DNA of 61,015 nt, the filler included, from Hausera hauseri (taxonomy: Eukaryota), in NCBI GenBank assembly GCA_046269625.1. It is 11 parts of 11 records of this genome, joined end to end, with 100 filler letters (N's around TTAATTAATTAA, not from the genome) between each part and the next. Parts side by side here need not be neighbours in the genome. Positions count along the whole stretch, not along the records: positions 4,669 to 10,298 come from JBJURY010217744.1; 10 more parts are not named here. The stretch is one strand, 5' to 3'. The notes under the pieces are model-generated. The model worked only from the letters and a program-made list of their open reading frames with translations. It made no database searches and was not told where the DNA came from. The number at the start of each line of letters is the position of its first letter. Within the stretch, counting starts at the first letter, position 1. Shown piece by piece: positions 4,669-51,530 of the stretch. A program made the position numbers and the translations under genes.

Positions 4669-4722
4669 ATTTGAATTTTATTGGGAATTCCTTCATCCAT
4701 TTTCCATAAAATACATGCCGAT

Positions 4723-5835
4723 TTACTTTGGGTGGCTGATTCTGTGATTTGGGCGGATGTTTTCCCCAGCCCATAATGGTACGCTCTCGCATAGTAGGTG
4801 AAATCCGTAATTTGGTGTTGTTGTCTGGTTTACAAGCCTCCGAGTAAATATTATACTCTGGACGAAAGTTGAAATAGGTATGTTTGGTTTCACTGAGAAA
4901 AGAAGGGATAAACAGTGGGAATGCACTCTAATTGGTTGTCTTGTTTCCAGCGTTCGATATGCGTCAAAACGGATTTTATACCAAATGTATGGGTATAATG
5001 TACAACATGACCGAGTATCATTTCTCTTAAGATAACAGTAATATGGTTGTGCTATAACTGCGGAAACAGGATCGAGCCATATATTGATTCCGTAGTTGCC
5101 AGGTAGCAATTTTGTGGTACGGAAATTTATACATGGGATTTTCGGTTTGAGGTTCATACCAGAAATTTCAATATCATTTTCCAAAAATTGAGCAATGAAA
5201 ACATCACACTCTACTCTATCCGGGGTTTCTAACGTTGTCATATCTTGGTAAGTAGGAACATAAAGAGTCATGTTAGGTTCCCAAGTAGCACTATCCCTAT
5301 TGTAAGCCTTCAATACTACATAGTAGGTGTAAGTCATCCTGTAAGTAATTTGACATGTTTTATTATGCCTTTCAGGAATGGTGCAGCTAGCCTATGCATT
5401 ATGGCTTGATATAAAGATAAACTTCACCTCGTGTTGCACAAAGACCGATGGGTGGGTCTTCATGCAAATACTGGGTTTGGTTTTGTCGATGTGAGCAATA
5501 GTAGCGCGTGCGATCAATTCTGTACTAGCCATTAGTATTTTGCCATGATTGGGTTCCATTGTTGAAGTTTTTACGAAAATTGTCAGTAAAATGAACATAA
5601 CAATACGTAAGTGTCTACCCAAGGTGATGTGAACTTGGTAATGTTCATGTTCTGATTTATTCAAAATGCGAGTTTTAAGTAGAGCGGCTACTTTATGTTC
5701 TTCCGAGTTAGTTAAATCGAGATGCATTTTCCGAATAAATTCGTTGTATGATGTAGGGGCTCGAGTGACTCGTTGAACAGAGATCACTTCTTGTTTGTTT
5801 GGTCCTTTCTGGATAAAATGTGTCTGTGAGCGCAC
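4723..5835 (-). pseudogene. Integrase C-terminal extension: hydrophobic segment followed by a Cys- and N-glycan-sequon-containing domain of unknown family
   Basis: ORFs 5392-5835 and 4723-5337 share a frame, separated by one TAG; hydrophobic LRIVMFILLTIFVKTS; sequons NKT, NMT, NDT, NQT. Confidence 0.5.
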
Positions 5836-8800
5836 ATCAACAACTTTGTACGGTCCTTGACCAGTACGTCTTAATTTTAACGATTTTCCTTTCTTTGCAG
5901 CGGGGTAATAAACCGTTATGTAATCTCCAATTTTATAAGTATGTTATCGTACCTTCCTATTAAACTGTTTCTTGTATCCTGCTCTGTATTATACTTCAAA
6001 TTCTTTTGATTCCCTTTGAAAGTATTCAAGTCCTTTGAGTAGATTCTGATATTGCTCATCCATATGATCACTTGTCTGTAAGGATGATGGTAATAATTCC
6101 GTCTTTAGCGGTAATAAAGGCAATCGTCCAAATATTAATTCAAAAGATGAATAATTGGTGCCTTTAGTAGGGGTAGTATTAATCGCAAAGGCTGTAGTTT
6201 TAAGATTATTTTGCCAATATTTTTGGTCATGTGCTACTTTTGTGGAAAGAATGCCTTGGATTGTACAATTCATCCTTTCAACGATACAGGTACATTGAGG
6301 GTGGTAGGATGCAGTTAACAGATGTTTTTATGGGAATATTTTCGACAGTTTTTCGAAAAATTCGTTGATGAAGTATGGTATGCGATCAGTTAACAACTGT
6401 TTCGGCGTGTCTAGTACGGCTATAACCTCATAGAAAAAGGCTTCCGCCACAGTATCACTAGCCATGTTTTTAAGGGTACTAGTACAACATATCGAGAGAA
6501 ATAGTCAACAAGTGACAATATATATTTATATCCTGAATCGGAAATTGGGAAGGGTCCAGATATATCCATTGAACACACTTCCATTGGCTTCCGAGCTTCA
6601 GGTAGACTACCCAGAAAAGGTTTTACACGAAACCCTCTATCTTTTCTTGTAGCGCACATTTTACACGAAGGTACCCATCCTTCAATATGTTTATTCATTT
6701 GAGGCCAATAATACTTTATGATTATACGCTTCAGAGTCTTATTCAGAGATGGATGTCCAGCTAAATGTAAATCATGTTCTTGTAGCATAGCAGCCTTAAT
6801 TTCCGGTGTGGGTACAATGATCTTAAATGCCCTTTTCTTAAAATTCCATTTTCAATTTTTAGATTCTCTTTGTTTTTTGCATAAAATTGTTGAATATAAC
6901 TTGATACTGGTTCAACTAAATGTCCATTGATTAATTGTTTGACTTGGACAATGAATGGATCCTGATTTTGTAAAGTCTCAATATTCCGGACCTGAGTTTG
7001 TCGTTGGTCGTGTAACATATCGTTAATGATTTTATCATTCAATTGTTTATCATTTTCGTTATCTATTGGCTTATGGACTGCGGCTACTATTTTTTGTATG
7101 GTATTCTCGAATGTGCGTCCGCATCCATATTTTCTTTTCTTGGTCGATATCGATACTCAAGGTTATAGTTCAGAAGTTCTAACTTCCATCTTTGGAGTCG
7201 GCTTGATACATGTCTATTGTCGGAGCGCAGGGATAACAGTGCCTTATGGTCAGTAAATATTATGATTTTATGACCGTAAACATAATATTCGTAATGTCGC
7301 AATCCAACCCGAATTGCTAGTAGCTCTAATTCAATAGTTGAGTATTTTCGCTCTTCATTATTTAAATTTCGTCCTCCACAAGCAGTTACATGCTGAGTTG
7401 TTTCGCCGGGTTTTTCTGAGCTAATATATAACTAATAGCTTTTATGCTAGCTTTAGTTTTTAGACTGAATGGAGGTGAAAAATCCGGATATCTCAGTATC
7501 GGTGCTGATACCATTCGTCTTTTGATTTCGTCAAATGCATTCTGGTTCTCTGCTGTCCATTCCCGTTTTTGGTCTTTTCTTAATAGCTTATATTTGGGCT
7601 GGTTAATTTCTGCAAAGTCTGCTATAAAGGTAGCGTAAAATCCTCTTAATCATAACCAAGCTTTCATTTCGTGTATGTTAGTTGGAGAGGATATTCCAAT
7701 ATTTTAGATATTAAATCAAGACTGGTTGATATACCTTGGTGGGAAACAACAAATCCAAGGTATCTAACTTCCTTCTTGCACCATTCACATTTTCGCGGGT
7801 TTAACTTTAACTTTTCAAACCTGTTTCGATCAAATACTTCTTTTAATTCTACTAAATGTGCCGACCATGTCTTGAATGCGATTAAAATGTCGTCAATGTA
7901 TGAGAATCCTCGTACTCCTTTTAATACTAAACGAATTACTTCTTGAAAAAAGGTGGGTGCTTTTTTCAAACCAAACGGCATATGTCTAAATTGATAAACC
8001 CCTGTATGTTTCTTAAACGCGATTTTCCACCGATTTTCTTCGGATACGGGTATTTGTCAAAAACCACTCTGTAAATCTAATGTGGTAAAATATTTATAAT
8101 CTTTTAGTTCGTCTATAATGTCGCTTATTCGGAGGCATTGGATAAGCATGATTTATCAGATGCTTATTTAATGTAACATAGTTTACACACAAACGGTGCT
8201 GTCGTATTAACTTTCTTGGTCATAAGTATAGGAGAGGGCCATGGCGATTGACTAAGCTCTATAATACCCTTATCTAACATTGTTTGCATTTGCTCCTCAA
8301 CTTCCTTTTTGAGTGCTTTTGGAAAAGGGTACCACTTTGGTATGGGTTGCCGCAATAAATCCATTTCTTTTCCTGTCAACGGGTCAATCATAAATGATAG
8401 TTTGAATTTAACCAAATCGGTTCGCCCGATGTCTGTTTCGTCTTTGGCAAAAATGTCAAGATACTCAAAAACAAAATCGGAAAATTTTTCCAGATATTCG
8501 TCTGATAAGTTTTTCTTCGCTTTTACGAGAACAATATCAAGTACATCTTCAGAATTTTCGTTTTCTTTGGTTGAGATAGCTGCGATTTTATTATTGTATT
8601 CTTCATGACAAGTGGTTTCTAGGGCCCGTCCAATTTTCATTTTTGTGAATAACGTTACATATTTTTGGGTTGGATTTAAAATTTCTATGGGGATAGTTCC
8701 TCCGACTACGTTAACGCAATAATGTGGCAGTCTAAGCCCGTTTCGAAGGATTTTCGGTACAAACTCGATTATACAGTTATCTGAAAATATCGTTTTAGCA

Positions 8801-9577
8801 TGTGTGACCATCCTAGAGTTGGATGGTATTTTCTCAGCATGTCCTACCCAGATGTCCGCTTTACCGTAGATAAGAGGAATATTTTCGTTATTAGGGCAAA
8901 TTGATCCCGATTGTAGGTTTATGTGTACGCCTTCTAATTTTCGCAATACATTCATCCTTAGAATGCATTTTGGATCTAATGCGGTCATTACATAGAAAGT
9001 TTTTTTATTCTTTGTCCGCAAATCCATAATTCGCATTTCCAATATCCATAAGGTTTGCTGCATTGCTGGAAGGCTGAAGTGATACCAAGTGAGTCTTTGG
9101 TGGCTAATTTTATTTGAGATTGTAATTCTTCCGGAATTGCCTGTTTCGCTATTAACGCAACATTAGCTCCAGTATCTACCATAGCATTTAGGTCAAAAGT
9201 ACCGAAATGAACTGTCCTGTGAGGTCAATTATCTCTTAATAGTTTGAGAAAGGTTAGGACGTCGTTTTCATCATCTATATGAGGTTCCATCAAGGTGTAA
9301 CTGGCTGAACAGTATCTAGTCATTCCGTGAACTAATATGACCATTAGACTTTCCAGCGATTGTGTATCATTTTCTGACCCTTTGGGTTTATCTTTGAGTT
9401 CGGTCAAGTCTGTGTGGCAGCTTAAATGCTATGATATTTTTGTTGCTTATTACTGAGTTCATTTGCTGAAATTGCGTAATGTGATTTCCTGTCTGGTTGA
9501 GCTTCTATTAATCTGGTTACTGGGTGATAAGGTACCGGTGGTACCATGCCACATTTGCGTGATACTGGTAATATTAC

Positions 9578-10298
9578 TCAATTATTTTCAATATTTCGCA
9601 TAATAATGGATTGGAGTATTTCTTCTTGAGAGTACTTAGGCATACTACGTAATTTTATGTAATCTTTCTCTCCATAAGGATCAGTTAAGTCTGTTAGATT
9701 GGGTAATTTACAAATAGGCATTGTTTTACTCTCATACGGTGTGGCAGGTAATTTGTGCTTATCCTTTCTCTTTGGCTTCATAAACTTGAATTGTCTCCTC
9801 TTGTCCTTAAGGATTCCTGTTGTAGGATTGTATCTAGGGGCATTACTGTCATCCGAGCTTGATGAGGTATCCTTTGGAAATTGTTTCTCTGATTTGTAGT
9901 CAACATGTTTTTCTAATTTACCTCGCCATTGTTTCTCATGGTAGGCTTTAATGAATTTTCCTATTGGAAAAAATAAAGCACTTATTATGCTTGGCGATAT
10001 TCCCGTTAGATTGTAGATCTCACAAGCATTCAGTACGGAGTTGATACAAACTTTTAAAGTCTGTATAATGAAATAGATTACCAGAAACCATGAGGCTACT
10101 TGGCCGAATCTTAGGAATCCTCCCCACATTTTGTACCACAAATTTGAGACAATTTTGGTGTAGGCATCCGGTGTCCATAATCGATCCTATTTGCTTCTCC
10201 TGCTGTGTCGTCGATTACTCGGTATATCCCTCGATTTACAATTTGCTCTCTCTGTCTCGGATATGCCAAAAACTTTACAAATTAATCAATTTCTTCCT
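9578..10298 (-). pseudogene. C-terminal part of a chuvirus-like (Jingchuvirales G-type) envelope glycoprotein
   Basis: EEID*FVKFLAYPRQREQIVN (10296-10235), a frameshift, then KMWGGFLRFGQVASWFLVIYFIIQTLKVCINSVLNACEIYNLTGISPSIISALFF. This follows my recalled pattern for chuvirus-like G (..imFP.Ek.ailn.. k.W.gF..FG...a..l.i.ii..liK.ii.....g..l...yG.s..l..a.w). A basic/Pro-rich tail follows. Confidence 0.65.
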
Positions 10299-10398: not shown

Positions 10399-13326
10399 GA
10401 AGGCGTCGATCGATGCATCAGCTTTTTTCATCGATTTCCACTGACATTCCCAGACCTCGACAACCTTGACTTCGCGGGCGAGATACTCACGTATTTTGGA
10501 GGTTTTTTCAAACAAAGCTGCCAGCGGTTTCTTGTTGACGGGGTTCACGACTTTCCCTTCGGTGATGGGACAATCCGGGTGCCCGTGAAATAGGCACCCG
10601 TGAAACTGATAGGCTGTCTGAGTGCTCTTGCACCAGCCATCGACCTTGACGTGCTTGGGACCGATCGCCATTTCCCCGCCGTTATACTGGGTCTTTAGGG
10701 ATATCCCATGCACGTGCTCAAGCCAGGCCAACCATTCCCGACTTTGTTTGGTGTACGAATTAACGGTGTGTTTCTTAAAACCGTCTTCGCATGTTCGGAC
10801 AATTGCAAAGTCGGTTGGCATATCTTGCGTGAGAGCCCATAAATATAACGCATTTGCGTCGTAACCCTTAATGCTCTTAACTAACTTAGTGCCCCTAATA
10901 CGCGTCTTGTCGGCGGTATGCATTCGATGGAATATAATGCTTGGTCCCCCGACTATATTGTCTCTAAGGGTCTGGTGTAGATCTTGCTGTCGTTTAGAAA
11001 ACAAGGAAAAACTAACGTCTGAGGGAAGGGTTTTAAAAAGATAATTTAAGGTAACCCCGGGGACGCTAATCGCCTGCTTAAAAATATCTACCCCCAACTC
11101 GGTGTAAAACGCGACCTGTCTATCTAACGCCGTTATAAAGGGGACTACGTCTCTGTTGTTGTACCATACAAGGAAATCTTTAAGGGTACGCATCCCCTCC
11201 GCTTTCCATACTTCTCGACAATACTCGTAGTCCTTTTCGGAAATGTTACTATTTTTTAGTGTCGAATGGAAGGCGGAGTGGGGTGGGAGACTAGTTTCTT
11301 CCAACTTGGCTAAGCTATCTATGTACTCGTAGCAGAAGAACCCTTTAGTTTCTTTCACCTTGTATGCGGCTAGATATTTCGAATAAGTGAAGCCCGGCGC
11401 AATATAGTTACAGACATCAAGGAATTTTAGCTTCTGCGTACCTAGACACAGGAAATTATTGTTGCGTTTGACGATATAACTGAAGGGGTCGATAACATTA
11501 TCGAGTTTATTTCCGACTAGGTCGGAAAGGGCCTTAATTAAATAGGGTTTAATAACGTTGATGTCGTACTTTCCACCATTAAAGGAAAGGACCGGCAGCT
11601 CACGCAAGTACCTTTCCAGTTTGTCGGCCAGATCCGTGGCTTTCATATCGACCAGTTTGGAAAAGACATCCGCAAATTCTTTGCATAAGATGTCGTAAGC
11701 GGCGTCAGCGATTGTCACGAGATGTGTTACCATCTGGTTGACCAATGTTTGGGGACATCCCTCGCTGACAAAAGTCTGTGGTTTCTCAAATCCTGGAATA
11801 TTGGAGGCTACTGCAACCGATAAAGGGACATGAAGAGACAGATATTTCGTAGAGTTTGTCTCACTTGGCAAGTCACTTGCCATAAAAAATGTCTCGATAT
11901 CATACGTGGCGCGGAACCTGTATACATATCTAGTATCGACTTCGATGCCGCGTTGAGCAATTTTCTCCAGGATCGTCTCTGGTGGGGTATAAATCCCACC
12001 TTTGCAAACCTCTTTCGAGACACCAGCAACGCAGGTCTTTTCATGTTTTGTCATGAAACAATAGCGCTTCCACAGCTTACCGCATTTGCTACAGCTAAAA
12101 GAATGCGAGGCCTTGTTTATGTCCGATATGTACAGGAAATGAGAATTGAATAACAATAATCTCATCGTTTTGGGGAACAGGCAACTACTTCTAATCTTGG
12201 GGGAGAGAACTTGTTCACTATCAAAATGGAAGACATCAACGTTTACGTTAAAACAAAGTTCGAGTCTTTGCAAGTCTACTAAATCTACGCCGGGGAAGGG
12301 GTCGGCCAGTGACGACCCCTGGAAAACGCACCATTGTTTGAATAATTTTTGTGTTGCTCTTCTAGTATTTTTAACAGGGCCTTTGTTAAAGATGGCTAGA
12401 CAGCGGAAAAAGCAGAGGTTATCAGTGTATGGTTTGTTGTGTGAGTCGTGTTGTAATATATGTATGGCTTTGTTCTCTGTAATAAATTTGGGAATCTCTT
12501 GTAGGCAACCGACAGGAAATTCAAGTAAATTATAAATGTATATAGAGGTCGAGGGTACTGCTTCTACGTAATAGGAAGTATTTGGTCTATTTTTAAGTGC
12601 CATATTCAAAGGGTCCGATTCTTCAACTTCCCTAATGAAAGCTAAAAAATCTTGTCTATTATTAATTAGTTTAGGTCTATCAAAGACACAGCTATTATTC
12701 ATAGAAGCGTGAAAAAATTTGAGTTCTCTGCTATCTCTTTTTCTGAGTATAAGATGGTGCGAGATATTCACCTTGAAGCGGGTCTTTTGGGCGTTGAATA
12801 CCTCCAAGAGGAAGGACCAATCCCGTGTGTGATTAGATGTGGGGGGATGGAAGAAAGTATACGTGGAGAGATATTTTTGGACATTACTGTGTGTTTTGAT
12901 AGCGGGCCAATTATCTACATAGACAGATCTCAGATCAGAAGGGAGAGAAAGCAGTGCCTCATCAGGCAAAACAACAGGCAGACCATCATGAGCATGTAAA
13001 ACCTCACTTGCACCCACACTCTCGCTTAAACTCTTGCTTTCATCCACCCGCTCACTCGCGTTTGCACTGACATTACTCATTTGCTCATTATCGATCGCCT
13101 CGCAAGTATAGCCATCTTCATGTTTCGTCCTTTTGGCAGCAGGTGCAGCCATATCAGATGGGCGCTTGGTGTGTTGTTTAAGGTGGGCTTTGAGTGTGTC
13201 GGAACGCCCGTAAGTGCGCTCACAAAAGGTACATTTAAAGTTCTGTTGCATATGCGTAGTTTCCAGATGTCTTTGGAAATTATCAAATCTTCTAAAGACC
13301 CGTTGACAGACGTCACACTGGTTTTT
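10399..13326 (-). CDS. polB: Polinton/Maverick protein-primed DNA polymerase B (N-terminal C2H2 fingers, OTU-like domain, exonuclease, palm, Vsr-like nuclease insert); intact ORF, C-terminus cut by contig end
   Basis: Over 950 uninterrupted codons; ExoI YDIET, ExoII FNGGKYD, KGFFCYEY, ExoIII YNNRDV, motif A YDANALY, Vsr-like KVDG...YQFHGCLFHGH...VWECQW; DNLCFFRCLA and LFNSHFLYI; an extra in-frame C2H2 finger upstream of the ATG at 13251. Confidence 0.93.
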
Positions 13327-16300
13327 CTGTGAAATAGAGAAAACAGCGTATGTCTTTTCACTAACGAGCTAGTATTCATACACATCACCAAAATTTACTA
13401 ATAATTTTAGGATAATATGCAATGTTAGTAAGCAAACAGCTATTAACAAATTGATGTAAAGAAATATAACTAAGATACACGCTAATGGTAAGCACGTTTT
13501 GTAATAGTAATTCTGTAAGTTTTGCCCTAAACTTTACTACAGACTTTTTCGTTTGCATTAGTGCTAGAACCCTTACCTTACCAAATATTTTACAAAGACA
13601 CCACTAGTAACTACATAATAATTTTACCAATATTAACTAACTGTTCACTAAATATCCATATACATAACTAATTTATAAAACATTTTCTAAATAAAGCACC
13701 TAACTACTAGTCGTGTAACTAAAACTAGGACACTATAGCAGTTCACTACTGTTCACTAATAATTTTCGCTAAATAAAATAACACTAATACTTTTCTTTAG
13801 CGAGTAAAGCGTTGCGTTTTTAAATAAAAGCAACTATTTAAAAAGCACACTCGTAGATTGGACAAATCCTCAACCTGTTTACGGATTATATTATATCTAA
13901 CCTAGATGGTAGTCTTGTAAATCGTAACTGAATCTAGTAATAAAATACAAGTTCACTAACTGAACCCTCCGGCAAATACGTACTTTTTTAACTAACTAAC
14001 CTCTGGTACCTTAAATAGTAATGTAAGCACACTGTGGAAAGAAATATTGTTAGCAATAGCTGATATTTGTATGATAGGACTAACTATTACTAAGTTAGTA
14101 AAGCCGAAAAAAAAATTTAACTAGATGTAGCGCACTCTGATAAAACAAACACAACTAGTGGTTAGTAACAAAATATAGGACAGGTCTAGAGGTTTAAATA
14201 CAGCTAGTAAGTTCTTAAATAGTAAATATCACAACAATTAGTACTACGAAGTGCTTACCTTTCCGTCAGTATGAGCAGATTTAATATGCCTACGTAAATT
14301 TTCATTTAAACTATACTCTTTATGACACACTTGACAAGGAAATTGCTGTGGGATATACAAAAACATGTATTACAAAACTATCCAGTAGAAAGAATACATT
14401 ATTCACCACTCTGTAATACAGTTACCATACTCCCGCCCGGTCACAGGTGTTAGTTACAGCCCGATCAATATATTCCTACAAGTATGTTTGATGCAAACCT
14501 TTTAAAACCAAAAACTGTTCCTAAGTCCCAAACACAGTATTTCCTGTTACAATCTTTTACTGAAAAATGGCAAACAGTTGCCTTAAAAAGAAAACCTGTT
14601 ACAGAACACTGACTACAACATAGCTTGACACAAAACTACACCAAGCCCCCTTCCTAGAAAGTATTTAAATTTTTACCTTTTCTACTTACTAATTCCCGAC
14701 CACCATATAGAAACAACCCATTTACCAAGCATCTTTACAAAACAAAACTAATTCCCAAACACATTGTTACAACCTTTTACCAAAAAACGAGCTCTATTGC
14801 AAACAGTTGCATTAAAAAAAAAAAAAGGAAACCTGTTATAAAAAATATACGTAACAACGTCTATTGCAAATAAGCAAAATACAGGCCTTGCATAATGCTG
14901 AAAACCATGCAGTACATAACTACACCACAAAACCAGGTAGGAAAACATAAGAAGTACCTTAGAATTTTGTTTAGTAAGCTCAACTTCCGTACTAGTACTG
15001 TTCATTGTTTCTGTAAAGAAAAAAAAAAATAAACACGCTTGAAGAAATATGAAGGAATAGCTGGAAAATAATTATCTTCTATGCTTTGGCTATACACCAA
15101 AAAGCGTAAAATATTAATAACAAAAAGGCGCTCTAGGGAAATATAGTTTTCATGCGGAAACCCTAAAATGGCTAAGAATATTCTTAAAATATATATACAT
15201 GTATAGGTGGAAAACCTTGTTAACGAGTATTCTCTAATGAAAAGTCGGTAATTCGTTAACCTAGGAAACGCGGCTGGTAGGATTTTTATCAAATAATTTT
15301 TAACATTATTAAACGCGAGATTACCAAAGAATAGAGGATACGGCTGTGTGGTAATTAAAATAAATGTTATTACTAGTAGAACAGCCATAACTGCGGACAC
15401 GCGACTCTAGTTGTGACAATATGTTACCTACGTGATAGGAACCATAAACCTTTTAGAAATGTTAGGTGGAAAATATTTAAGCCTAATAGAACACTGACAG
15501 GATTTTTATCAAATGATTTTACCAAAGACTGCTGATGTGGGTTAATTAAGCGCTAACATTATCAGAAGAACATCGGTGACCCTATTATGACACTGAAAAG
15601 CGCGGTTAACAAAATACTCACCAGAAGGTCGGTAAACTTGGCGGCTTTGAAGTTGACGACTGAAGAATCTGATGCGTGGTGTAAAGGTATGTTGCAAACG
15701 GTGCAGATTATACTCAGTAGATGAGCCTTATTACGCAATGTCAATGCACGAAAACAATAGTTCCGACTTATGTTATAGTAAACAAAAAATTACGCGACGT
15801 CCCGCTTACGTTATATTCATACGCCAAAAAAGTAGTCCCGCCTTACATCGTACTGTTTTCGGTACCTTAGTAAGTATTTACACAGGGGGGACATTCAACT
15901 TGAAATATCGATGCGTTGCAAATTTTAGTGCGATCTTATCTGCTACCCATATTAACATACATAGCGATGCGTCCTGTTTTTGCGAAAAATGCAGATTTTA
16001 CGGTGATCTTAATCTAACTTGGATAGAGAGTTTCACAAATTTCATTACATAGACCGATCAATATAGTAAAGCCCAGTCCGTTGATTAAGCGACAGGTGCT
16101 GTACATACCGGTGAAACATTAGCATTTATATTATCAACAGATCAAACAAGCGCGCGGGAAATTTTATCATGCGAAAATATCGATGTTGTAAAAGCTCACC
16201 TGGTGTTTCGCGGCAGAAATCTAAATTTGCTCTACTGTTAAAGATTGCTTATTGTATGTTAGTGAAAAATAAAATATATGAAAAATGACGGCGTTTTGTT

Positions 16301-22479: not shown

Positions 22480-25400
22480 TTAGACAGTAAATTTTGCAAG
22501 ATGTTTGAATAAATATTGTTGGCACATCTTTGTCAAAATGACAACTTATGTGTTGTATGGTGACATGGTGGGAAGACTCTCCCATTGACACGCTATTTTG
22601 TCCAGTGCGACCACACTTCAAGCACTACATCACCCCCTTGGCAGAAAAGAAACTGTGCAAGGTGGAAAGGAATGATAACGATAATAAGGATAAAAGGAAC
22701 AATGTTTGCCTTCTATTCGGTTTTGGTGTGAGTTAGACGTTGTGTGCCATCACAGAATTTTTCTTTGCTGTAGGTTCTAAATGTCACTCTACGCGCCTTA
22801 CATGATTGGTTTGTGCTTGGTTGTAGTTCGACGTTATGTGATATAGGTGACGAGGAGAATATGTCAAGCAAAGGAGGCAATACAATTGAAGGCGATGAAA
22901 CATTGGGTAAAGGCAAAGAAGGCGAAGAAAGTAGTGAGCATGATGACGGAGAGAGAGGCGAGAAGAATGGAGGAAATGATGATTGAGCGTGGTCGAACAG
23001 TGATCGCTGAAACGGCAAAAAGTCGTTTAAAAAATCGGTAAGAGTAGGAGTTGAGTTTGAATTGGTGGTAGAATTGGTATTAGGGTTGTCATCAATGAAG
23101 AAAGCAGGCTTCAGATTCGAAATGTGGACGTTGTATGGTTTATCGTGGCATACAGTTGTAGCTGTAGGAGATGAAAGATTCAACAGTTTATACAGGTCGA
23201 CATATTGAGGTCTAAAACCTAAAGGCGATTGATCCTTCAACCATACAAACTTGGTGGAGTATAAATCCTTCGGAATATGGGATTTGTTGTTGTTAAAAAG
23301 GTGACAGAATGAATCTGAGCTGACCTCGATGAAGTGAAATTGTGCCGCACGAATGTTTTCGTCTGTAGGGTTGTCGTAGAGATCAGATATCTCAAATAAG
23401 GCCCGAATTGGAGTCCCAAAGAGTATTTTGGCGGGAGAACAACCGGTAGTGGTAGAGGGTGTGTTGTGCCAACCTAGTAGAACAAATGGTAGAATAGTCG
23501 CTCAATTACGATGAGTGTCAGACAAGTTTTTTAGAAAAAATTTCATTGTCCGATGGAACCTTTCAAGAAGGACATTTGCTTAAGAATGATATGGTGTAGT
23601 ATAAAAATGGGATATTCTCAAGCGTTTGACAAGTAACTTGAAAAGTTGTGACTCAAATTATGGACCTTGATCCGTTATTATGTAACGTGGGGAACCAAAG
23701 CGACTATTCCAGATTTTAATAAAGCCATCGGTTACTGAATCAGTGTTTGTTGAACGAAGAGGAACTGCTTCAGGCCAACGAGAAGCACGATCCATCATAG
23801 TAAGTATATGTTGATATCCGTTGTCAGCAGGTAAAGGACCAACTAGATCGAAATCAACTGTATGAAAGCGTGATGTACAGGAAAAGTGGTAAAGTGATGG
23901 TTTAAGGTGTTTGTTGATTTTGTATTTCTGACAGGCTGTGCATTCTTTAACCCAGTTCTGTACATCTTTGCGCATTGATGGCCAAACTATATGACGTTGA
24001 AGCAAGCGAAAGGTAGCTTTTAACCTGGATGATGGAGTGATTGAGTATGAACGAAAGCTGGCTTTTGTAAAGGTAGTGCTAGAATGATCTTTTTATTACC
24101 GGTATTTGACGTATCATAAGCAATGCCATCGACTATCTTGAAAGATTTGAAGGAACTAAGGACAACAGCAGACAGTAGATTTGCCTTTAACACTTTGGAT
24201 GAGAAAATCGGCTCAACTGTGATGGAGCCAACCGACCTCGATAGAAAATCTGCTACCAGATTATCTGTGCCTGAGATGTATTCCAAAACAAAGCTGAACG
24301 TAGACAGGTACGATATATGTTGCTCTTTCCTCGATTATGTGCAGGAGAGGCTTGTGATCAGTTTGAATGACAAATGGACTAGAGATAAGTAGATGTTTGA
24401 AATGTTTTACTGCCAGAACTATGGAGGGTAACTCGCGGTCAAATGTTGAGTAACGGCTCTCGGGTTGTGTAAGCTTCCTAGAATAAAATTCTAATGGCTC
24501 GTCGACGCCATTAGAGATATGATGTAGTACAGCACCAGTAGCTGTGTTTGAGGCATCGGTTGTAAGTATAAGATCTGGCTTGGGTTTCGGATAGGCCAGT
24601 ATTTCTAGTTTTAAGGTCTTCACGCAAGTGATCAAATTTGGTTACCAGATCAGGAGTCCAGTGGATCAACTGCCTCTTTTTTCCGGATAACAAATGTGCA
24701 ATAGGTGCTGTGAGCTCAGAACAATGAGGTACGTATTTGTGGATGAAGTGGAGTGTGCCTAAGAAGCTTTTCATGTCTGTGGTAGTCGTTGGTAAAGTTA
24801 TGTTCTTTAATTCTTGTAGTTGATCCGGTTTTTGAGAGCGGCCGTGAGGAGTGATGATGTGATCTAGGAAATTTACTCGTTTCTGAAAGAAATGACACTT
24901 GGCGAAGTTGACTTGCAAATTGTTATGATGTAATCTGTGAAAGATAATACGAAGGTGTTCTTGATGTTGTTTGACAGATGCTGAGGCAACTAATATGTCA
25001 TCAATATATGAATGAGCGAAGTCAAGTCATGAGAGTACGGTATCAATGTGTCGTTGGGAAGTTTGAGAAGCACGACGTAAACCAAATGGCATAAAGATAT
25101 ATTTGTAGAGGCCAAATGGAGTAATAATAACAGTTTTTGGAATATCATCAGGTGCAACAGGAATTTGATGATATGCTTTATGCAAGTCAATTGTGGAGTA
25201 GGTGTTAGTGCTAGTAAGGCTGTGCATGATGTCATTTATAAGAGGTAAAGGGTAAGCATCCAAGACTGTTAGATTATTTAAGTGACGATAGTCACCACAT
25301 GATCTGTACGTGCCATATTTCTTTGTCACTACATGCAATGATGAATCCCATGGTGATTTAAATCGTCGAATAATGCCCGCCTTTTCCAGTTCATTGAACT

Positions 25401-27330
25401 CTGATTCAACGTCTTTTTATCTGCGAGGTGACAGTGGTCTGACCTTTTGTCTGATAGGTCTTTGGAGTTCGGTAATTATGTGATGATAAGTTGTAGAATG
25501 CGGCTTGAAATTGATGTCCTTCTTGAGAGGGTGGAAACAAGAAGTTTGATATAGGATTTAAGATCAGAACCCAACCATAAAAAAGACGAGGGCATATTAT
25601 TGGAAGAGTCAGTAGCTGTAGTTGATGTAGAATGACTTAACACTTCATAAACAACATTCGGTTCAGCCGATTGTTTAAAGATTGATTTGTTTCCACTTGA
25701 CGAGATTGAAAATATTGATGAATTATTAAGTGTATTGTTATTAGCCAATGAACAGCATAGAAAATTGACATTTGAATGAACAGAGGAAGACAAGATGTAC
25801 GACTGGTCGTCTAGTAAGCATTTTTTGCTATTTGCAACGGAGTTCCTGCGCAAGAGATATCTATTCTTATAGTCCACTAACAAATCGTATGCAGCTGGGA
25901 AATCGGAACCTATTATGGTCGATCTAATACTGGCTATATGAAATTTCCAGGAGAATTTCCCTGGTAGGTTGGAGAATGCGAAAGTCATTTTTGTGGTACC
26001 TACAATGTTTAAAGGTTGACCACAGGCAGTGAAAAGTGGAGGAGAGAAAACTGTGTTGTATGTACGAGCGAAAGACAAACGAAGAAGTGAAAAGACAGCT
26101 CCTGAATCAATGAGGAAGTCTATGTGTGAGGTGTCTCCAAATAACATTTCAGCCTTCAACAGAAAGACTGCAGAGGCGGTGTCGAAACGGCCAGTAGTTT
26201 GAACTATATTGCCTGTACCAGAATGTCCCGTGGCATCTGGTGGTGTTATTGGTTTTTTGAGACTTGTTGGTAGAAAGAGTAGAAATGGTGAGTGCGAGGA
26301 GGTAAAGAAGATGGAGAGAAACTAGAATTCTTTTTATAATGTTTACATCCTGACACGCATGACCTTGCCTTGGATTGATACTTTGTGATAAATGCAGATA
26401 GGGTTGTCTACTGCATAAGGTTCGTCGTAAAATCAACAGCCTAAAACACATTTCCTTGCGTCTCTGTGGAATTTATTGTGATAAAAACACGTCATTCTAC
26501 CATCTCTAGATTTCGACAGAGAAGAGTGCCTTGAAAAACTACGATTGCGCGAATTACGGTTTTCGCTTCCTCGAGGCTCGTATGTCACTGAGTTTGTTTG
26601 TGATCGCAAAAATTGCCTGTTGTAGTGTGTCGAATTGCTTCTGCATTATAATGCAATTGTTGTGCAAACAAAGTGTTGTCTGTGTGTGATGGTATGTGAG
26701 CGGTTGCTGCAGCTACTGGCTGTGAATTATTAGACTGCAAAATATCAAAACTTTTGTCTGCCAACAAGGCGAGTTTTTCAAGGGCAGTAGAGTCGTCTAC
26801 TACAGTAAGCAGAACTCGGATGGAGGTTGCCAAGACGAAAAAAAATACCGATGAAGAAGATCGGCGTTGTTTGTGGGAGTGACGCCCAAGGAGCTCAATT
26901 GCGAGATTGCAGTTTTAAGGAAATTCGATGGTTTTTGATTTCCAATGGCGTGTTTAGTAAAGTATTTCTGAATTATGCTGTCAATGGAAGGGTCGGTGAT
27001 ATGCAGAACTGATTCATACAGCATATCATACGGATTTTAAGAAGTATGTATGTCAGAAAGATTGTTGATTTACTGCTTGATGTTAGCTGGAAGTAATAGC
27101 AGCAAACTGTTCGCCCTCAAAAAGGACTCTGTAATAGGATTGGCTTTAAGTCTTTGCAAGTGGAACTGCAACCAGCTACTACTAGAATTCATCTTGTCTA
27201 GAAAAGAATCCGTGCAGGGGAGATTTGGAGATGTAGTTGGTATGGGGTCGATAGGACGACCAGATCTGGTTTGGTTAAGTTTTCGGCAGAAGGGTCAGGG
27301 TTCGATCTACCCCGTAAACGAAAGTGGATC
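22480..27330 (-). mobile_element. Near full-length decayed Ty3/gypsy element (gag-PR-RT-RH-IN, PPT, 3' LTR start)
   Basis: Gag IGNQKPSNFL and LEKLALLADKSFDI; protease FLIDSGA (~26110); RT CGDYRHLN, MPFGLR, YIDDILV; RH TTDASNTA; IN HHPG..CTAC, MMDRASRWPEA, ITDQG; PPT AAGGGGGTGA followed by TGTAG at 22629. Distal LTR boundary is approximate. Confidence 0.93.
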
Positions 27331-32000: not shown

Positions 32001-35000
32001 TNNNNNNNNNNNNNNNNNNNNNNNNNNNNNNNNNNNNNNNNNNNNTTAATTAATTAANNNNNNNNNNNNNNNNNNNNNNNNNNNNNNNNNNNNNNNNNNN
32101 NTTCCAATGTAATTCACTTTCTATTTTACATAATTTATGTACTGGCCCCTTGTGTGTTTCCCCGTTCAATTTTATCTCCACCACCTTTACAACGTTGTCT
32201 ATCCCAGGGAATACCTTCGTTATTTCTGCCGCTGGCCAATGATTTAACTTTTTATTTTTCTCCAGCAACCATACTTTGTCTCCGATTTTTAGATCTATCT
32301 TTTCTCTTTTTATCCACTCATAACTTCGCCATTCGGATAGGAGTTCACTTATCCATCGATCCCAATATTTGCTGACTAACCTCTGTATAAATCTCCACCT
32401 ATCGGACAAGCTGCTACTGTTTGTTCCGGTTATCTCCCAAGAGATCTCCTCATTGTGTCAGGCTATAATAAAGTGGTTTGGAGATAAAATGACATTATTT
32501 TTACTATCATCGACAACTCTTATTAGAGGCCGGCTATTCGTAATTCCTTCAATCTCTATCAGTAATGTTCCTAATTCTTCATCGGTCAGTGAATTTTCCG
32601 GAAGCAATTTGTTCAACGAACTTTTTACAGACTTGACCATTACTTCATATACCCCTCTGAAGAGATGGCTCGCAGGGGGATTAAATATTCACCTTATTTC
32701 GGTGTCCTTGAGCGCTCTCCTGAGACTATTTGTGCCGATCTTAAATTTGTACACCTCTCTGTTAACTCCAATAAATGTTCCCCCGTTGTCGGAGACTATC
32801 AACGAAGGTCTTCCGCTTCGACTTATAAAACGTTTGAGTGCTTTTAAAAATGAATTAGTGTCCAACCCCGCCAACACTTCGATGTGTACTCGACGACAAA
32901 GTAAACATGTGATTAGACATATGTACCTTTTTTCATGTGCTAACCCTTGTCTTTGTCGAGTTTTCACTGTCCTGCGAAGTCAATCCCGACTTTATCAAAA
33001 GCTTTTTGCGGTAATTGTGTCCTAAACGTCGGTAACAACTCCTCTATCGCTCGTATTCCCTTTGCATTTGCCCTCCTACAAATCCTACAATAGTTCTGAT
33101 AGGCTTTAACTAACTTCTTCATCTTGGGAAATCAATACCTACTGCTTAACTCCGCAACTTGGTGGTTGACTCCCGCGGCGTGCCGTAAACTCAGATATGT
33201 ATCCTCGATGATTAGCTTCATTACGATACTCTTTGAAGACAGTATTATTGGATACTTTTGTTCCCAATTCAACCAAGATGTTGTTATTAGGCGATTATTT
33301 GATCTCAGTACTCCTTCATCGTCTAAAACGGGGTTAGATTTTGCAATAGAACTCCTGAGGCTAATATCCTCCTCGGATCGTAAATTCTCTATTTCTGTAT
33401 GGAATTCCTTCCCTTGGTCCTCCTTTATTATTTCCAATTTTGCCTTTCTTCTTAGTTCTGTCTTACGTAGATCACTATTTTCCTCCTTCTTTATGATTTC
33501 CTCAATCTTAAGCCTAATTGTTCCTTTCCAACGAGATTCTACACATTGTTCGGTGTCACCCACATTATCCTGTCTTCGGTGTTCTTTTTCCGATGAATTA
33601 TTTTTTAACGACATCAATGTGATTTCATCTTTCCTCCTTTCCTCATCCTTCGGCTTTGTTAATTCTCTGGGTTGGGAACGCCATTGATCTTCCGCCTTCC
33701 TAAGAAACTCTGGGCCATTCCACCACTCCCTTTTGTTTTGTAACTCATCAACATCTAATCCCCTAGAAAGGTAGTCCACATGGTTATGTTCTGTGTTTAC
33801 ATAGTTCCATTGTTTTCCGGTCGTTTCCTCTTGGATAAATCCAACTCTGTTCGCGACGATCGTTTTGTAATACTTGTTGCAGCCTTTTATCCAATCCAAT
33901 ACGTTCATGCTGTCCATCCAGTAATGTATATCTTCCTTCTTGTTGTCCAATGTCTTTCTTACTTTTCTCCCCAGCTTAACCTTATACAAGCTGCCATCAG
34001 TTCCAGTCTTGGTATGGCGACAGATTTTACCGGTGTCACCTTACCTTTTGAGCATACGATCACTACTTTAACTTTTTCTTCTACTATCGACCTTAAATAA
34101 GCAACCGCTCCATAATCCCATCTCGAGGCGTCGCAGAAAATGTGTATTTTACTATTATCACCTTCTTGGAAGTATAAATATCTTGGCACCGTTATTGTAC
34201 TCAAGTTCTTAATCCCTTTCAGCCATGTCCTCATTTTTTCTCTCAATTCCTCGGGAATTTTTTCGTCCCAATACACATTCATAATCCACAGTTGCTGCAA
34301 AAACATTTTCCCCAACAGTTTATAACAACTGAAGAAGCCTAGCGGATCGAATACTTTCGCTAATGTGCTTAATAATGTTCTTTTAGTTACATCTGACTCT
34401 TGCTTATTACGATTTTCAAATTCGAATATATCCTCTTTGATATTCCACTTCATTCCCAACGTTTGGTAACAGCGTCAACATTTTCTAATATGTTAAATTC
34501 CTTAGCTCGGTCATTGATAAGGATTATGTTCGTTAATTCACTAGAATTTGACACCCATTTGTGAGGTTTCATCCCAGCACTTTCCCATATCTCACTTAAT
34601 TTATAGTACAGCGAAACAGCTTCTTTTTCAGTGCCAACTGATTCAATACAATCATCCATGTATGTAAAATTTCCTATTGTTTCCACGGCTCTGGGGACAT
34701 TTCCTTTGAATTTCTCGGCATTGTGTCTTGATATCAGTTGCGCCAAAAACGGATAGGAGTTCAACCCAAATACCAAACGATTAAACTCATACGTTTTGAG
34801 CTTCCCATCCTTGTACCAAAGAAATCTCAAGTATTTCTTATCCTGTTGTTTCACCTTAATTTGCAGGAACATTTCCTGGATGTCGCATATGACCACCCAC
34901 GGCCATTTTCTCATCCTTAACATAATGTCCACAATATCCAGTTGTAACTTCAGGACGGGATCTAGGAAATCGTTCAGGCACTTTCCTCGATATTTTGAAG

Positions 35001-36177
35001 AACCATCGAAAACTGTCCTACATTTTGTGGTGTCTCTATCGGCCTTCGTAACTGGGAATTGCGGTAACAACCAAGCTATATCCGGTTTTTCCTGCTCCTC
35101 CACTAATCGAATGCACCCTTCTTTGCTGTGTGCTTCTATCACTTTTTCATACGCTGCTTTTGCCGTCTCATCCTTGTCCAGCTTTCTCTTTAAGGTTTCC
35201 AACCTTTTATGTGCTATCCGTTTGTTGCATTCCATTTCAGGTTGTATCCTTCCCTTCAATGGCAACGGCACACAGTATCTATTCACCTCGTAAGTTGTTT
35301 CATCCAATATATTCTTTACTGTTTCCTTGTCTTGTTCAGACCTCTCAGACTCTTCCACGTCCATATTAAACTCAATCTCCTATAATCGACTCAAGTCGTT
35401 TTGAATTTCTTCTGCCCTTGTCCAGAAAGCTCTCACAAAATTGCTATTTATAATTTTCTTTCCCTTTTTTATTTGCCTTACACAGGTCCAACCTAACGGG
35501 GTTAATCGCGCCACCGGTGCATACCTTTTACCGCATACCTATTTGATTGACCTGTGTAATTCTATAAAATTCGCCCCTATGATCCCATTCACTTCCGACC
35601 TGGATGACATTTCGGGGAACTTTAAATCCTTTAAGAGTGGCCATTTCTGTCTTTGTATGAACCAATTTACTGCCCTCATTCGCCCCGTTGAATTTCTCAT
35701 AGCCAACGTTTTGAAATTTACTTCTATTGACTGTTCCATATTTAGTAACATCATTTTAACTCTATTGATAAACATCTTGGTTTATTTTCCTCCGAGAACT
35801 GCTATCGTCAGCTTTTCTGTCTTCTTACTAACACCCAATTCTTCACACAGTTTTAAATCTACGAAAATCTCGGTGTTGGCATCGTCCAAAAACATTATTG
35901 CCTTTTTCATTCTATCCCCATTTTTTAACCACACTTCTATTGTCCTTAACGTTACCATCTCTTCTTCTTTGTTTCCCTCTTGAGAGCCTTGTGTCACATA
36001 TGCTCTAACACCTTTTTTCTCATTCGATGTCTCTTTTCCTTTTTCATATTCTGTCGTCCATGGCAGTGAATCTTCTGCTGTCCTACGTGTTATGTTTTCC
36101 TGAGAACTTTCAATTTTTCTCCCTACTTCCTTTTCTTCGCAATTGTTTTTGACATTTTTCATGTTATCCATTTCCCC

Positions 36178-36324
36178 ATGTAGAAACCTACAATTATTCC
36201 TATACTTACATTTCCCTTTTTCAAGGTACCAACATAACCTTCTTTGATCATCCTTGCTAGATTGATGTAGGTATTTACAATTCTTTCCGAATTTGCACCA
36301 TCCGTTCTTATCAAAATTCCAGCA
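36178..36324 (-). other. Tandem CCCH zinc fingers in BEL/Pao Gag
   Basis: CWNFDKNGWCKFGKNCKYLH (C-x8-C-x5-C-x3-H) and CWYLEKGKCKYRNNCRFLH (C-x7-C-x5-C-x3-H). Confidence 0.9.
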
Positions 36325-37431
36325 TCTCTGGAACTGATCTTCTCGCTGTATGTTGTGGTGGCTAGATTGTACCTCCCTTTTAACTTCTCGATCTCTTATT
36401 TTGGAATCCATGTTCTCGATATCTCTATTAACAACCCGTGATCTTTTCGTAAAATACAATATTCCATCTCCTATTAGTGTGCATCGACCATCTTGACTTG
36501 GTTTGAAGGCTTCGATTTCTCTCATTCTCTCTATGATATTTCTCCTAACCATCGCTTCTATCTCGATCCAATTTTTCAATTCCATGACTGTTCTATCCGA
36601 CTTTTTCTTGATCACATGCCCTTCCAATAGAAGCACAATTCATTCAGGAAGATTTTCAACGAGGCTTTGGTACAATAGCCCTCCACTAAGTTCTCCCGTT
36701 CTCCCTAGATTCCTCAATCTTACAATTATTCCTTCTAACAACGCCACAAACTCATCTAGCCCTTTAATATCTTCCTTCTCTATCACCCGAAATCTTATGA
36801 CTTCGGTCATAAACGCTGCATAATAACGTTGTTCACCTCCATAATAGGAATCCAATGTCTCCAGTGACGCCCTAGATACTTCTTCTGATAGGTCGAAATT
36901 TCCAATCAGCCTTTTCGGCTCACCTTACAAGCACTGGTTCAGCTGCAGTTGTTTATATATTTTCGACATTGGGGTTTTGTGGATAAAAGTGTCAAAAGTC
37001 CTTTTCCATTTATCGTATTTGGTAATTAGCCCACCAAACTTCGGCAACTCTAATTTTTGTAACTTTGGTAATATTACTATTTTCGTTTTCTCCTTTTCAG
37101 GCCTTCCATTGGCGATCATCATCTTATTTTCTCTTGAGCTCCTCTCATAGATGATTGCGTTGATTTTTTTGTTCTGATCGTCTAGTTTCTCCATATCATT
37201 TTCTAACAATGTGAGGTTCTCCTTTTTTCTCAACTTTCTCGCCGTGGTGGCTAGTATACTCAACTCCCTTTGAAGATCGGTAAACGATTTATCATACTTC
37301 TCATGATATATTTCGTATTCATGATCATTCAAGTTCACATCCATCAACTTCCTTCGAATAGCTGAAAGATCGTTGATGTATTTACGTCGCTCAGATATCC
37401 TACCTTACAGTTCGTCTGCAATTATTTTACT

Positions 37432-38192: not shown

Positions 38193-41100
38193 CGTGATCC
38201 TGCTTGTTCTTCATACAGCACTTTTCATCACCCCTCGACCGCCAAACAAAACCCGGGGAAAAGGGAGGCGTTCGTTCCCAGACATGAGCATCGCGCGGGG
38301 AACAACAAACCCTTGATCTCGTATGGCAAGGGAACAAACCATGTTGGCACCACATCACCCTCCGTGGCTGAGTTAAAATCCATATATCGCGACAAAAGGA
38401 GAAGCAGAAGCGGAAAAGGTGAAAATATATTTAAAAGTGGTCTTTTCAAGGCGTAAAGTTCCCTGTTGGTATTTTACTCTGCAATATTTGTTGAATTTTA
38501 TGATTTTGCTTGCTTGTGTACGTGGTTTCTTTGTTTTCAACTGATTTTGGTGTAAAACCGATGTTAGTTTTGGGATTGTGTTGAGTGAAGGTCGAAGTGA
38601 AGAAGTAGAGGGTTTCAAAGGAGGATGAGATGAAGGATAATAGGGACTATAGTTTGAGAGAGGCGGAAGTTGCAAAGTGGAAATGAGAGGAGTAGAAGAT
38701 GGTTGGTTAAGAAGAAGGAAGATAGAAGACACCGGAGATGACGAAGATGTGGAAGGAGAAAGAGGGAGAGAGAGGGGACGCTGAATAAGGGCAAGACGGA
38801 AGAGAGTAAAAAGATGAAGAAGGTGAAGGAGAGGAGTTGGAAGGTGACATGCAAGAGGTTGGAATGATGAAAGGCGCATATGGAGAGATTGGTGAAGTAG
38901 AAGTGGTGATTACCGGAGAAAGTCTCATAGGTGAGAAAGCAGGTTGTCACCAGTGGATGCAGGAGGAGCTAAGAGGCTTGAAAGTGCAAAATGGGATGGG
39001 AAAAGAGGCGATGAACTGTCAAACAAAGTTGAAGTAGAAGGATTAAGAGAAAACGTAGGGAAAAGTGGATTAAAGGATTGAACAGAAATAGGGGGTAAAT
39101 TTTTGGATTGCTGCGCTTTGCGGAAAGATGTTGGTGGAGAAATGGTCACGATGGGGGATGTATCGTCAAGGAAGATGGCCGGATTAGCGTTGTTGATGTG
39201 GACTGTCACTTTTTGTCGTTCTTGAGGATGATGACGCTGTGGGAGTGTAAACAATTTACTTGGTAAGGGCAACCTACTGAGGTTGAAAACCACACGGCGT
39301 ATGATTCTTTAGCCATGCGAACTTTGCAGTATAAAATCGTCGGGTATGTAGGGTTTAGTGTCGTGTAAAAGTCTACAAAATGAGCCTTTGCTGATCGCAA
39401 CAAAGTGTCTCTGAGCCGCTTGTACGGTTTTGTCTGTAGAAATATTATCCAGCTTAGCCAGGTCGAATAATAGTCCGATAGAATTACCAAATAATGCTTC
39501 TGCAGGTGAACAGCCTGTAGAAGTAAATGGTGTGTTCCGCCAGCCAAGCAGAACGTATGGACGGAGTGTGGTCCAACTGGGATTGGCTCAGCAACGATTT
39601 CAAGAGACCTTTTTAATCGTTCGGTGGAAGCGTTCGAAAAGGCCATTTGATTGAGGATAATAGGTGACGTGTGAATGTGGTTAATTCCCAATCGATTGAC
39701 AAGAGCTTTAAAAAGGTTGGATTCAAATTGTAGACCTTGGTCCGAGATGATATGGCGAGGTGATCCAAACCTGTTGATCCAAGTGCGAATAAAAACGTCT
39801 GCGATTGTTTCTGTGTTGGTGCTCCGAAGCCGAACAGCCTCTGGCCATCGCGAGGCACGGTCCATCATAGTGAGGATGAACTGATGGCCGTTGTCTAAGG
39901 GTAGTGGTCCTACTAGGTCAATGTGAACATATTCAAAACGAGACGTTTAAGGAATATGATATAATGGTGGCTTTAAATGCTTAGTAGATTTGTATTTTTG
40001 GCATGCCACGCACTGCCTAGTCCATGCATGTACGTCAGAGCGCATCGTCGGCCATACTACTTAGCGTTGTAAGAATCGAAATGTGGCCTTGGCACCGGAT
40101 GGATGTTGTTGAATGCTTCTTTTCAAGCGATTCGGAAAGTATGATTTTAGTATTATTAGGTTTGGAGGTGTCAAAGGCCACATCGTCGATGGTTTTGCAC
40201 GATTTAAAAGATTTCAGGATTTCAGGAGGTGGCTGGTTTTGTTCAAGTCTAGATTGAAGGTGAGTTGGTGTAAAATAATTCGAGGTGACCGATCGGGACA
40301 AAAAGTCAGCTACTAAATTGTCGATTCCGTTTAAGTGCTTGCTTTCAAAATTGAATGTGGACAAATACGATATTTGCCTCTCCTGAAGTGGAGAAGGCGA
40401 TTTCTTGGTAAGAATTTGAAACAAGAGCTCGTGGTTCGTTTGTATTGTAAAGGTTTGCACGGTTAGCAGAGGCTTAAAGTGTTTTGCGGCAAGGACCATT
40501 GCAAGCAGCTCTCTGTCAAAGGTGAAATATCTTTGCTCTTGCGCCGTAAATTTTTGAGAAAAGAATTCTAATGGCCAATAGGAACTATTTTTGACTTGAT
40601 GGAGGACAGCAATTGCAGCTGTTGAGAATGCATGCGTGGTTAAGAAGAGTTCTGCATGGGAGTTGGGATAGGCCAGGATTTACACGGTTTTTAAATTATC
40701 TATGAGGTGATCAAAAGCGTTAAATTCTTGGCGGTCCATTGAATAGGCTCTTTTTCTTGCCAGAGCTTTGTGATGAAAATGGAGCGGTTAGAGTGGAACA
40801 GTATGGAATATACTTACGAATAAAGTGCAAGGTTCTGAGGAAAACAGGCATCTCTGTTGATGTACGTGGTAGCTGTATGTTTTTGAACTGTGTGATGCGC
40901 TCTGACTCAGGTGAATGTCCGGAGGAGCTAACAACATGTCTCAGGAAGTTGACCTTATGTTAAAAAAGGAGCATTTGGAGAAATTAATTTTCAAGTTGTT
41001 TTGGTGCAAGCACTGGAAAGTTAAACATAAGCGTTTGGGGTGTTGTTTCGAGGAAGTTGATGCAATTAGGATATCATCGATATAGGGATAAGCAAAGTCT

Positions 41101-42375: not shown

Positions 42376-42389
42376 GTGGCGAGTTTATT

Positions 42390-51203: not shown

Positions 51204-51530
51204 GAAACAACAAGTGCAGTATAATTATTCTTAAATATTATAAATAAGAAAAATAAGACACTACATTGCTATATTAACAACAGATAACTGATGGGACCCG
51301 ATTGTTAGTTAGGGAATCCTGCAAAAGTCCGATCAGAAATCGAAATTGGGATAAAGAAAAGAGTATGCGTGTACATAGAATGTATGTGTGTATAGGAATG
51401 GAAACGGGTATATTGGTATCATATGTATAGNNNNNNNNNNNNNNNNNNNNNNNNNNNNNNNNNNNNNNNNNNNNTTAATTAATTAANNNNNNNNNNNNNN
51501 NNNNNNNNNNNNNNNNNNNNNNNNNNNNNN

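Follow-up and report, generated by a model that had tools for sequence, protein, structure and literature searches.

The window analysed here, a stretch of 61,015 nucleotides from Hausera hauseri, consists of 11 short contigs with N spacers between them. On its minus strand, the 5.6-kb contig at 4669-10298 carries the C-terminal part of a glycoprotein (G), followed by a linker and by a protease (PR), a reverse transcriptase (RT), an RNase H (RH) and an integrase (IN), an order obtained with Pfam and tblastn. In the direction of reading, the features are:

10189..10275, minus strand: fragment of the G stem, which a frame change separates from the part downstream (tblastn to P0020 705-733 and P0010 658-686, 28% identity)
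9850..10186, minus strand: G membrane-proximal region, transmembrane (TM) segment (about 10034-10090) and juxtamembrane segment (PF24664, E 4e-13)
9578..9849, minus strand: hydrophilic tail, in frame with G and terminated by a stop
9225..9577, minus strand: distal linker, the most variable part among copies (break count, copy comparison)
9015..9224, minus strand: retroviral-type aspartic protease, DTG at 9176-9168 (RVP, E 4.6e-5; tblastn to P0020)
8195..9014, minus strand: PR-RT spacer and RT N-terminus (27% to P0023 1495-1732, a homologous region in env-pol polyproteins; no Pfam family above cut-off)
7398..8194, minus strand: reverse transcriptase and connection, broken (RVT_1, E 1.3e-17)
7093..7392, minus strand: RNase H (RT_RNaseH, E 6.7e-21)
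5833..6839, minus strand: integrase (H2C2, core and C-terminal part), broken (Integrase_H2C2, E 1.3e-16; rve, E 3e-4; tblastn to P0020 and P0023)
4723..5832, minus strand: extension of about 370 codons in frame with the integrase C-terminus, with an internal stop at 5392-5394

The stem fragment lies in a different frame from the TM part, and G is cut by the contig end. Both contig ends fall in or near coding sequence, with gag, the ectodomain and the LTRs lying beyond them; positions 4669-5000 hold no purine run of at least 10, and the contig has no second match within the window. Because every domain is broken, this copy is a dead element. Its RVT_1, RT_RNaseH and Integrase_H2C2 matches fit a gypsy-type pol, and the order PR-RT-RH-IN, seen with both Pfam and tblastn, is that of Ty3/gypsy elements (Metaviridae). 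A BEL/Pao pol of the Anakin type was considered and rejected, as the protease is RVP, no Pao-type peptidase family is present and pol aligns with gypsy-type polyproteins.

The ORF at 9578-10186 matches the Monjiviricetes_fusion family (PF24664) with 48.7 bits against a cut-off of 27 (model positions 522-627 of 653), and of its 18 phmmer matches, drawn from 1.84 billion proteins, 17 contain this family as well, the 18th being a WD40 false positive. Both results bear out the chuvirus-type G proposed in the initial annotation, and on the PF24664 match, which concerns the C-terminal about 110 residues, the protein is a class III (gB-type) env. A homology check of the G peptide, also suggested there, was positive for Pfam, whereas solved structures gave no true match and two weak unrelated ones. 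The hydropathy profile of window G shows a main peak of 1.7, corresponding to the TM segment, and a second, weaker peak of 1.4; in P0005, P0010, P0020 and P0023, G ends with one strong hydrophobic segment. A solo chuvirus EVE, i.e., G without retroelement domains, was rejected because PR-RT-RH-IN adjoins G.

In agreement with the initial annotation, which had placed env before pol and had described G and PR as nearly continuous, PF24664 is followed by RVP, RT, RNase H and integrase on one strand, with env directly upstream of pol and within 2000 nt of it. The 626 nt between the point where the G match ends (9850) and the protease ORF (9224) require a minimum of three breaks, namely the stops 9578-9580 and 9225-9227 plus one frame change, as opposed to 8.5 +/- 1.6 in shuffles of the linker, of which 1 in 1000 scored as low. 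Within the distal linker, the G frame stays open to about 9425 (some 50 codons beyond the stop 9578-9580) and the protease frame is open from about 9428 (some 67 codons ahead of the protease), with a single stop, 9225-9227, immediately before the protease. Break density is 4.8 per kb in the linker versus 2.7-4.0 per kb in three long pol segments. Taken alone, the distal half (9580-9225, 356 nt) is not significantly open (144/1000 shuffles), and the same holds for the short RH-IN segment (153/1000 shuffles); one of eight control stretches from another contig also scored three breaks. Some details of the earlier description shift. The single frameshift placed near 9410 is present as a frame change, but at about 9425-9480, and G itself contains another, near 10187; likewise, the gap of about 400 nt holds when counted from the G ORF stop (354 nt), whereas G homology ends about 625 nt before the protease. 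The reported lack of gag, PPT and LTR in the gap stands: there is no CCHC knuckle in 9000-10298, purine runs of at least 10 in 9225-9850 occur only inside the G-tail ORF, and the interval between G and protease contains no LTR-like repeat, knuckle or PPT-like run. The WGxF motif and the first protease motif are about 316 codons apart in the window and 148-842 codons apart in nine relatives.

Other copies of the element come from one public run (X1), possibly made from the source sample and hence not independent evidence of habitat; no RNA dataset is listed as containing the element. X1 contigs fall in every one of the element's 30 bins, and of 3691 contigs 2856 are less than 95% alike, so that the element belongs to a multi-copy family whose members have diverged. 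At the stop before the protease, other copies differ (16 contigs, 526/643 of the depth), and small indels occur among copies at 9438-9478 (1-3 contigs each), so that the breaks at these two places look copy-specific; this also bears on the frameshift, whose conservation among copies the initial annotation had wished to see checked and which appears to belong to individual copies. The stop 9578-9580 is absent from the difference sites listed (40 of 141 rows). At the post-integrase stop, other copies differ as well (4 contigs, all of the depth). Among the listed difference sites, a selected subset of rows, third codon positions account for 14 of 25 in the G tail (9573-9857; p=0.016), compared with 1 of 11 in the distal linker (protease frame) and an even 7/7/7 split over codon positions for the 21 in the post-integrase region; the latter two regions thus lack the bias seen in the tail.

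The same contigs bear on whether the junction is real. It could be a chimera, in which the end of an env and the pol of another element were joined by deletion, nested insertion or recombination and then spread as a non-autonomous family, or which is a product of assembly. Such an origin would fit the fragmentary assembly, the roughly tenfold fall in summed depth at 9434-9557 and the loose ends in the linker, where six contigs run into unlike sequence at 9412; among the contigs listed, none spans TM to protease. However, one diverged contig runs colinearly through 9183-9537, most of the linker, with 61 differences and one gap in 356 letters, which makes a one-off nesting artefact unlikely, and none of the three listed joints crosses from tail to protease. 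The near-open linker and the gap free of LTR-like repeat, knuckle and PPT-like run also speak against a chimera, as does the pol half, which independently resembles polyproteins of the same order. The G tree, discussed below, leaves some room for it, since it ties window G to the env-pol clade without firmness. On balance we regard a chimera as highly improbable, and with it the deletion or nesting artefact that the initial annotation had named as fatal to its reading.

Intact relatives show what the layout may have been before decay. An aspartic protease shares the ORF of G in 5 of 17 G relatives and is missing from it in the other 12. P0020 (4844 aa) and P0023 (3003 aa), from clusters of fused G matches, and two loci from a metagenome scan, L001 (3703 aa) and L002 (at least 3426 aa), each encode G-PR-RT-RH-IN within a single ORF; in L001, a zinc knuckle of gag (zf-CCHC, 356-372) lies ahead of G. 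As all four full-length relatives are single ORFs and the L001 knuckle precedes G, a gag-env-pol polyprotein is the likely original state. We therefore think it probable that the locus is a decayed Ty3/gypsy copy with a chuvirus-type G before PR-RT-RH-IN, most likely encoded as one (gag)-env-pol polyprotein. The Env-Pol polyprotein first suggested for this locus thus gains support as a likely arrangement, natural single ORFs of the same layout being known. The env-pol alignment scan gave 2 relatives among 65 metagenome stretches and none among 56 from viral contigs; with window proteins as queries, DNA scans gave 0 of 145 metagenome and 0 of 3 viral-contig stretches; and word-based protein searches gave 0 of 419 candidates for the G tail (longer proteins), 0 of 50 for the post-integrase ORF and, for the PR-RT spacer (longer proteins), 1 of 2258, this being P0025, a gypsy pol without a G family match.

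A different expression strategy would keep the same gag-env-pol order. Here env would be its own ORF ending at 9578-9580, with Pol reached by readthrough, programmed frameshift or splicing, and an Env-Pol fusion would be either not obligatory or a minor product. The G ORF does end in a stop, one that does not appear in the 40 of 141 difference rows listed, the distal linker by itself is not significantly open, and the search of Chary & Hayashi, as its text describes it, accepted a distance of up to 2000 nt from ENV to POL (PMC13524379). Yet both reading frames continue into the linker, from G past its stop and from the protease upstream, the two remaining breaks vary among copies, and the four full-length relatives are without exception single ORFs. 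We consider separate ORFs unlikely and retain the single polyprotein as the preferred reading.

Pol comparisons point towards these polyproteins. Window RNase H is 43-47% identical to P0020, P0023, L001 and L002 as against 31% to P0025, and the N-part of integrase 37-43% as against 31%, whereas the RT core does not separate them (38-39% to the four, 36% to P0025). The outgroups are few, namely P0025 and four ORFs of other gypsy copies in the window; by sequence identity, window pol appears closer to the env-pol polyproteins than to these few other gypsy sequences. The G tree, built on about 95 residues and 20 rows (P0008 was excluded as a false match and P0019-P0023 were not added), unites the fused proteins in one strong clade (100/99), with window G beside that clade rather than nested in it, on a long branch of 1.17 and with support of 84/76. 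A profile of the 12 non-fused G proteins scores window G at 78.9 bits versus 62.6 for the fused profile.

A separate question concerns origin. The initial annotation had inferred an independent capture, in which this lineage would have acquired its G from a chuvirus-like virus on its own and not together with the env-pol elements of the flatworm type. The long branch, an identity of at most 35% to any relative and the higher score of the non-fused profile would agree with such a capture, as would the statement that published GAG-ENV-POL elements are not monophyletic (PMC13524379). Against this, the G tree places window G, if weakly, beside the fused clade, pol points to the env-pol group too, and Chary & Hayashi argue in the same text for a long history of gB-type env in gypsy elements, with an ancient presence followed by rearrangement of the ORFs (PMC13524379). 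An independent capture thus seems rather doubtful to us.

Every component of the initial idea has a precedent. Non-canonical ERVs of nematodes reportedly carry a continuous gag-env-pro-pol ORF. By description, these ERVs resemble the window element in combining a Metavirus pol, an RNA-virus-type glycoprotein and a flipped env/pol order (Sacco et al., 2022; PMID 35550022). The env-before-pol order in gypsy elements is not unprecedented, being already in print (PMC6431247; PMC13524379). In 2019, planarian Burro elements were described with env in frame between gag and pol (Arkhipova & Yushenova, PMC6431247), and the passages on Burro/GYPSM1 give one polyprotein, an env matching arthropod and fish mononegavirus fusion proteins and, as in the window, an extra domain between PR and RT (PMC6431247). 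Burro ORF1 has about 4,900-5,100 aa and includes BIR, ankyrin, MATH and BCL2-like domains (PMC6431247), none of which was detected by Pfam in the window ORFs scanned, the region upstream of env lying outside the contig.

GAG-ENV-POL Ty3/gypsy elements with gB-type env have likewise been reported from Nematoda, Bryozoa and Platyhelminthes, together with 114 arthropod gypsy elements whose glycoproteins share homology with the chuvirus-like glycoproteins that mosquito BEL/Pao elements carry (Chary & Hayashi, PMC13524379). The window element is like the GAG-ENV-POL HSV/gB-type errantiviruses of that work (PMC13524379) in its Ty3/gypsy pol, its class III env before pol and its multi-copy state. It is unlike them in the broken, truncated state of this copy and in a G with only 25-36% identity to P0005, P0010, P0020 and P0023. 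By eye, six Schmidtea ENV rows of that paper share a Y-VYQESDF-like motif with the same four proteins; the passages concerned are silent on whether env and pol share one ORF (PMC13524379). Anakin, a mosquito BEL/Pao element, also holds a chuvirus-type glycoprotein inside an LTR retroelement, but its pol is BEL/Pao while that of the window element is gypsy, and the passages on Anakin report no env-before-pol order (PMC7642597). With the window element, a small published class in which a class III fusogen stands between Gag and Pol gains a divergent lineage.

This class raises the question of how Pol is packaged without a Gag-Pol fusion, to which an anchor in the Env tail would be a testable answer. 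Drawing on topology and on analogy with the intact relatives, we infer the following course. Gag would be made first, in the cytosol, and a signal within the polyprotein, located before G, would direct the ectodomain of G to the ER lumen. The TM helix of G would stop transfer, and the tail, PR, RT, RH and IN would stay cytosolic, anchored to G; Gag ahead of G and Pol after it would each be tethered to the membrane. With G standing between Gag and Pol, a conventional Gag-Pol fusion could not bring Pol into particles; with that route blocked, the membrane anchor would replace it by concentrating Pol beside Gag and G at the membrane, the site of assembly. The element's own protease would later free the domains, and G would drive membrane fusion into another cell, probably of the germline. 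The weaker second hydrophobic peak of G may be a helix lying on the membrane surface, since a helix crossing the membrane would make Pol lumenal, which is unworkable for a fused Pol.

Pol may be followed by a further membrane protein, a lead that the initial annotation did not take up. In the window, the frame after integrase has one break versus 11.75 in shuffles (0/1000 as low) and a weak signal-like hydrophobic stretch near 5630-5575 (hydropathy 1.5), and residues 29-250 of the translated part contain nine cysteines and three N-glycosylation sequons; hydropathy gave no TM segment and Pfam no family for this extension. All four full-length relatives have a hydrophobic segment or signal, an ectodomain and a TM segment after integrase, at these positions:

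L001 10066-10866: post-integrase membrane module
L002 9536-9970 and 4811-5257: post-integrase membrane module, with an extra copy between protease domains
P0020 4380-4700: post-integrase membrane module
P0023 2611-2882: post-integrase membrane module

The modules are related to one another, L001 being 33% identical to P0023 over 210 residues and the P0020 module scoring E 0.0003 against a profile built without P0020. An AlphaFold model of the L001 module from four sequences (mean pLDDT 51) has two all-beta domains and matches tandem FN3 structures (best E 7.7e-7, with TM-scores of only about 0.2-0.35) as well as FN3-type viral proteins, and for the P0022 module Atlas gave FN3-receptor leads at 0.81-0.84. 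With low confidence, the model thus suggests that the L001 module is tandem FN3-like. No similarity between the window extension and the module of the relatives was detected by BLASTP, HMM (-2.3 bits, within shuffles) or hhalign (probability 0.3), a single-sequence fold of the extension was uninformative (pLDDT 33) and Atlas gave only a lead of 0.77; the likeness of the two would be one of position only. We did not find the module in print: the Burro section of PMC6431247 mentions no membrane module after integrase, and 'fibronectin' occurs 0 times in the text of PMC13524379, while figures, Repbase reports and subscription papers may describe it. As a tentative reading, which we would not yet favor, env-before-pol elements might be two-glycoprotein retroelements with the window extension as a highly diverged version of the module in a separate lineage. 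Within one polyprotein, Pol would then have a gB-like fusogen ahead of it and, after integrase, a second membrane protein, of type I and bearing FN3-like domains in tandem, an arrangement that we hold to be possible to the same limited degree. If so, the second protein could act beside the fusogen as a separate attachment or receptor-mimic protein.

The relatives show further additions. Several aspartic-protease domains occur in the env-pol polyproteins P0020, P0005, P0010 and L002, and P0020 also has ankyrin repeats and protease-like domains after integrase. Additionally, L001 (12085-13470, E 0.0011) and L002 (10617-12104, E 1.4e-5) each have, as a separate ORF further downstream, one that weakly matches the RNase_T exonuclease family, and L001 has another ORF of 222 aa without a family.

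The other contigs of the window hold gypsy, BEL/Pao-like and DNA-polymerase fragments, a mix that appears to resemble what the repetitive part of an animal genome contains. Four related, decayed gypsy copies lie on separate contigs (356-2400, 22694-27128, 39437-42425 and 44767-49093), form two closer pairs with 84-90% identity and gave no G match. A broken element at 33132-37404 (minus strand), with CCCH-type zinc-finger motifs in the ORF 35782-36639, is from its motifs presumably BEL/Pao-like. From motifs, we also take the minus-strand stretches 50514-51224, 51531-52181 and 57694-58891 to be a piggyBac-like N-terminal ORF, a RING-finger ORF and DNA-polymerase-B-like fragments, respectively. 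At 10399-13368 (minus strand), an open ORF of about 990 aa combines two N-terminal C2H2 zinc fingers with family-B DNA polymerase motifs and is, we assume, Polinton/adintovirus-like.
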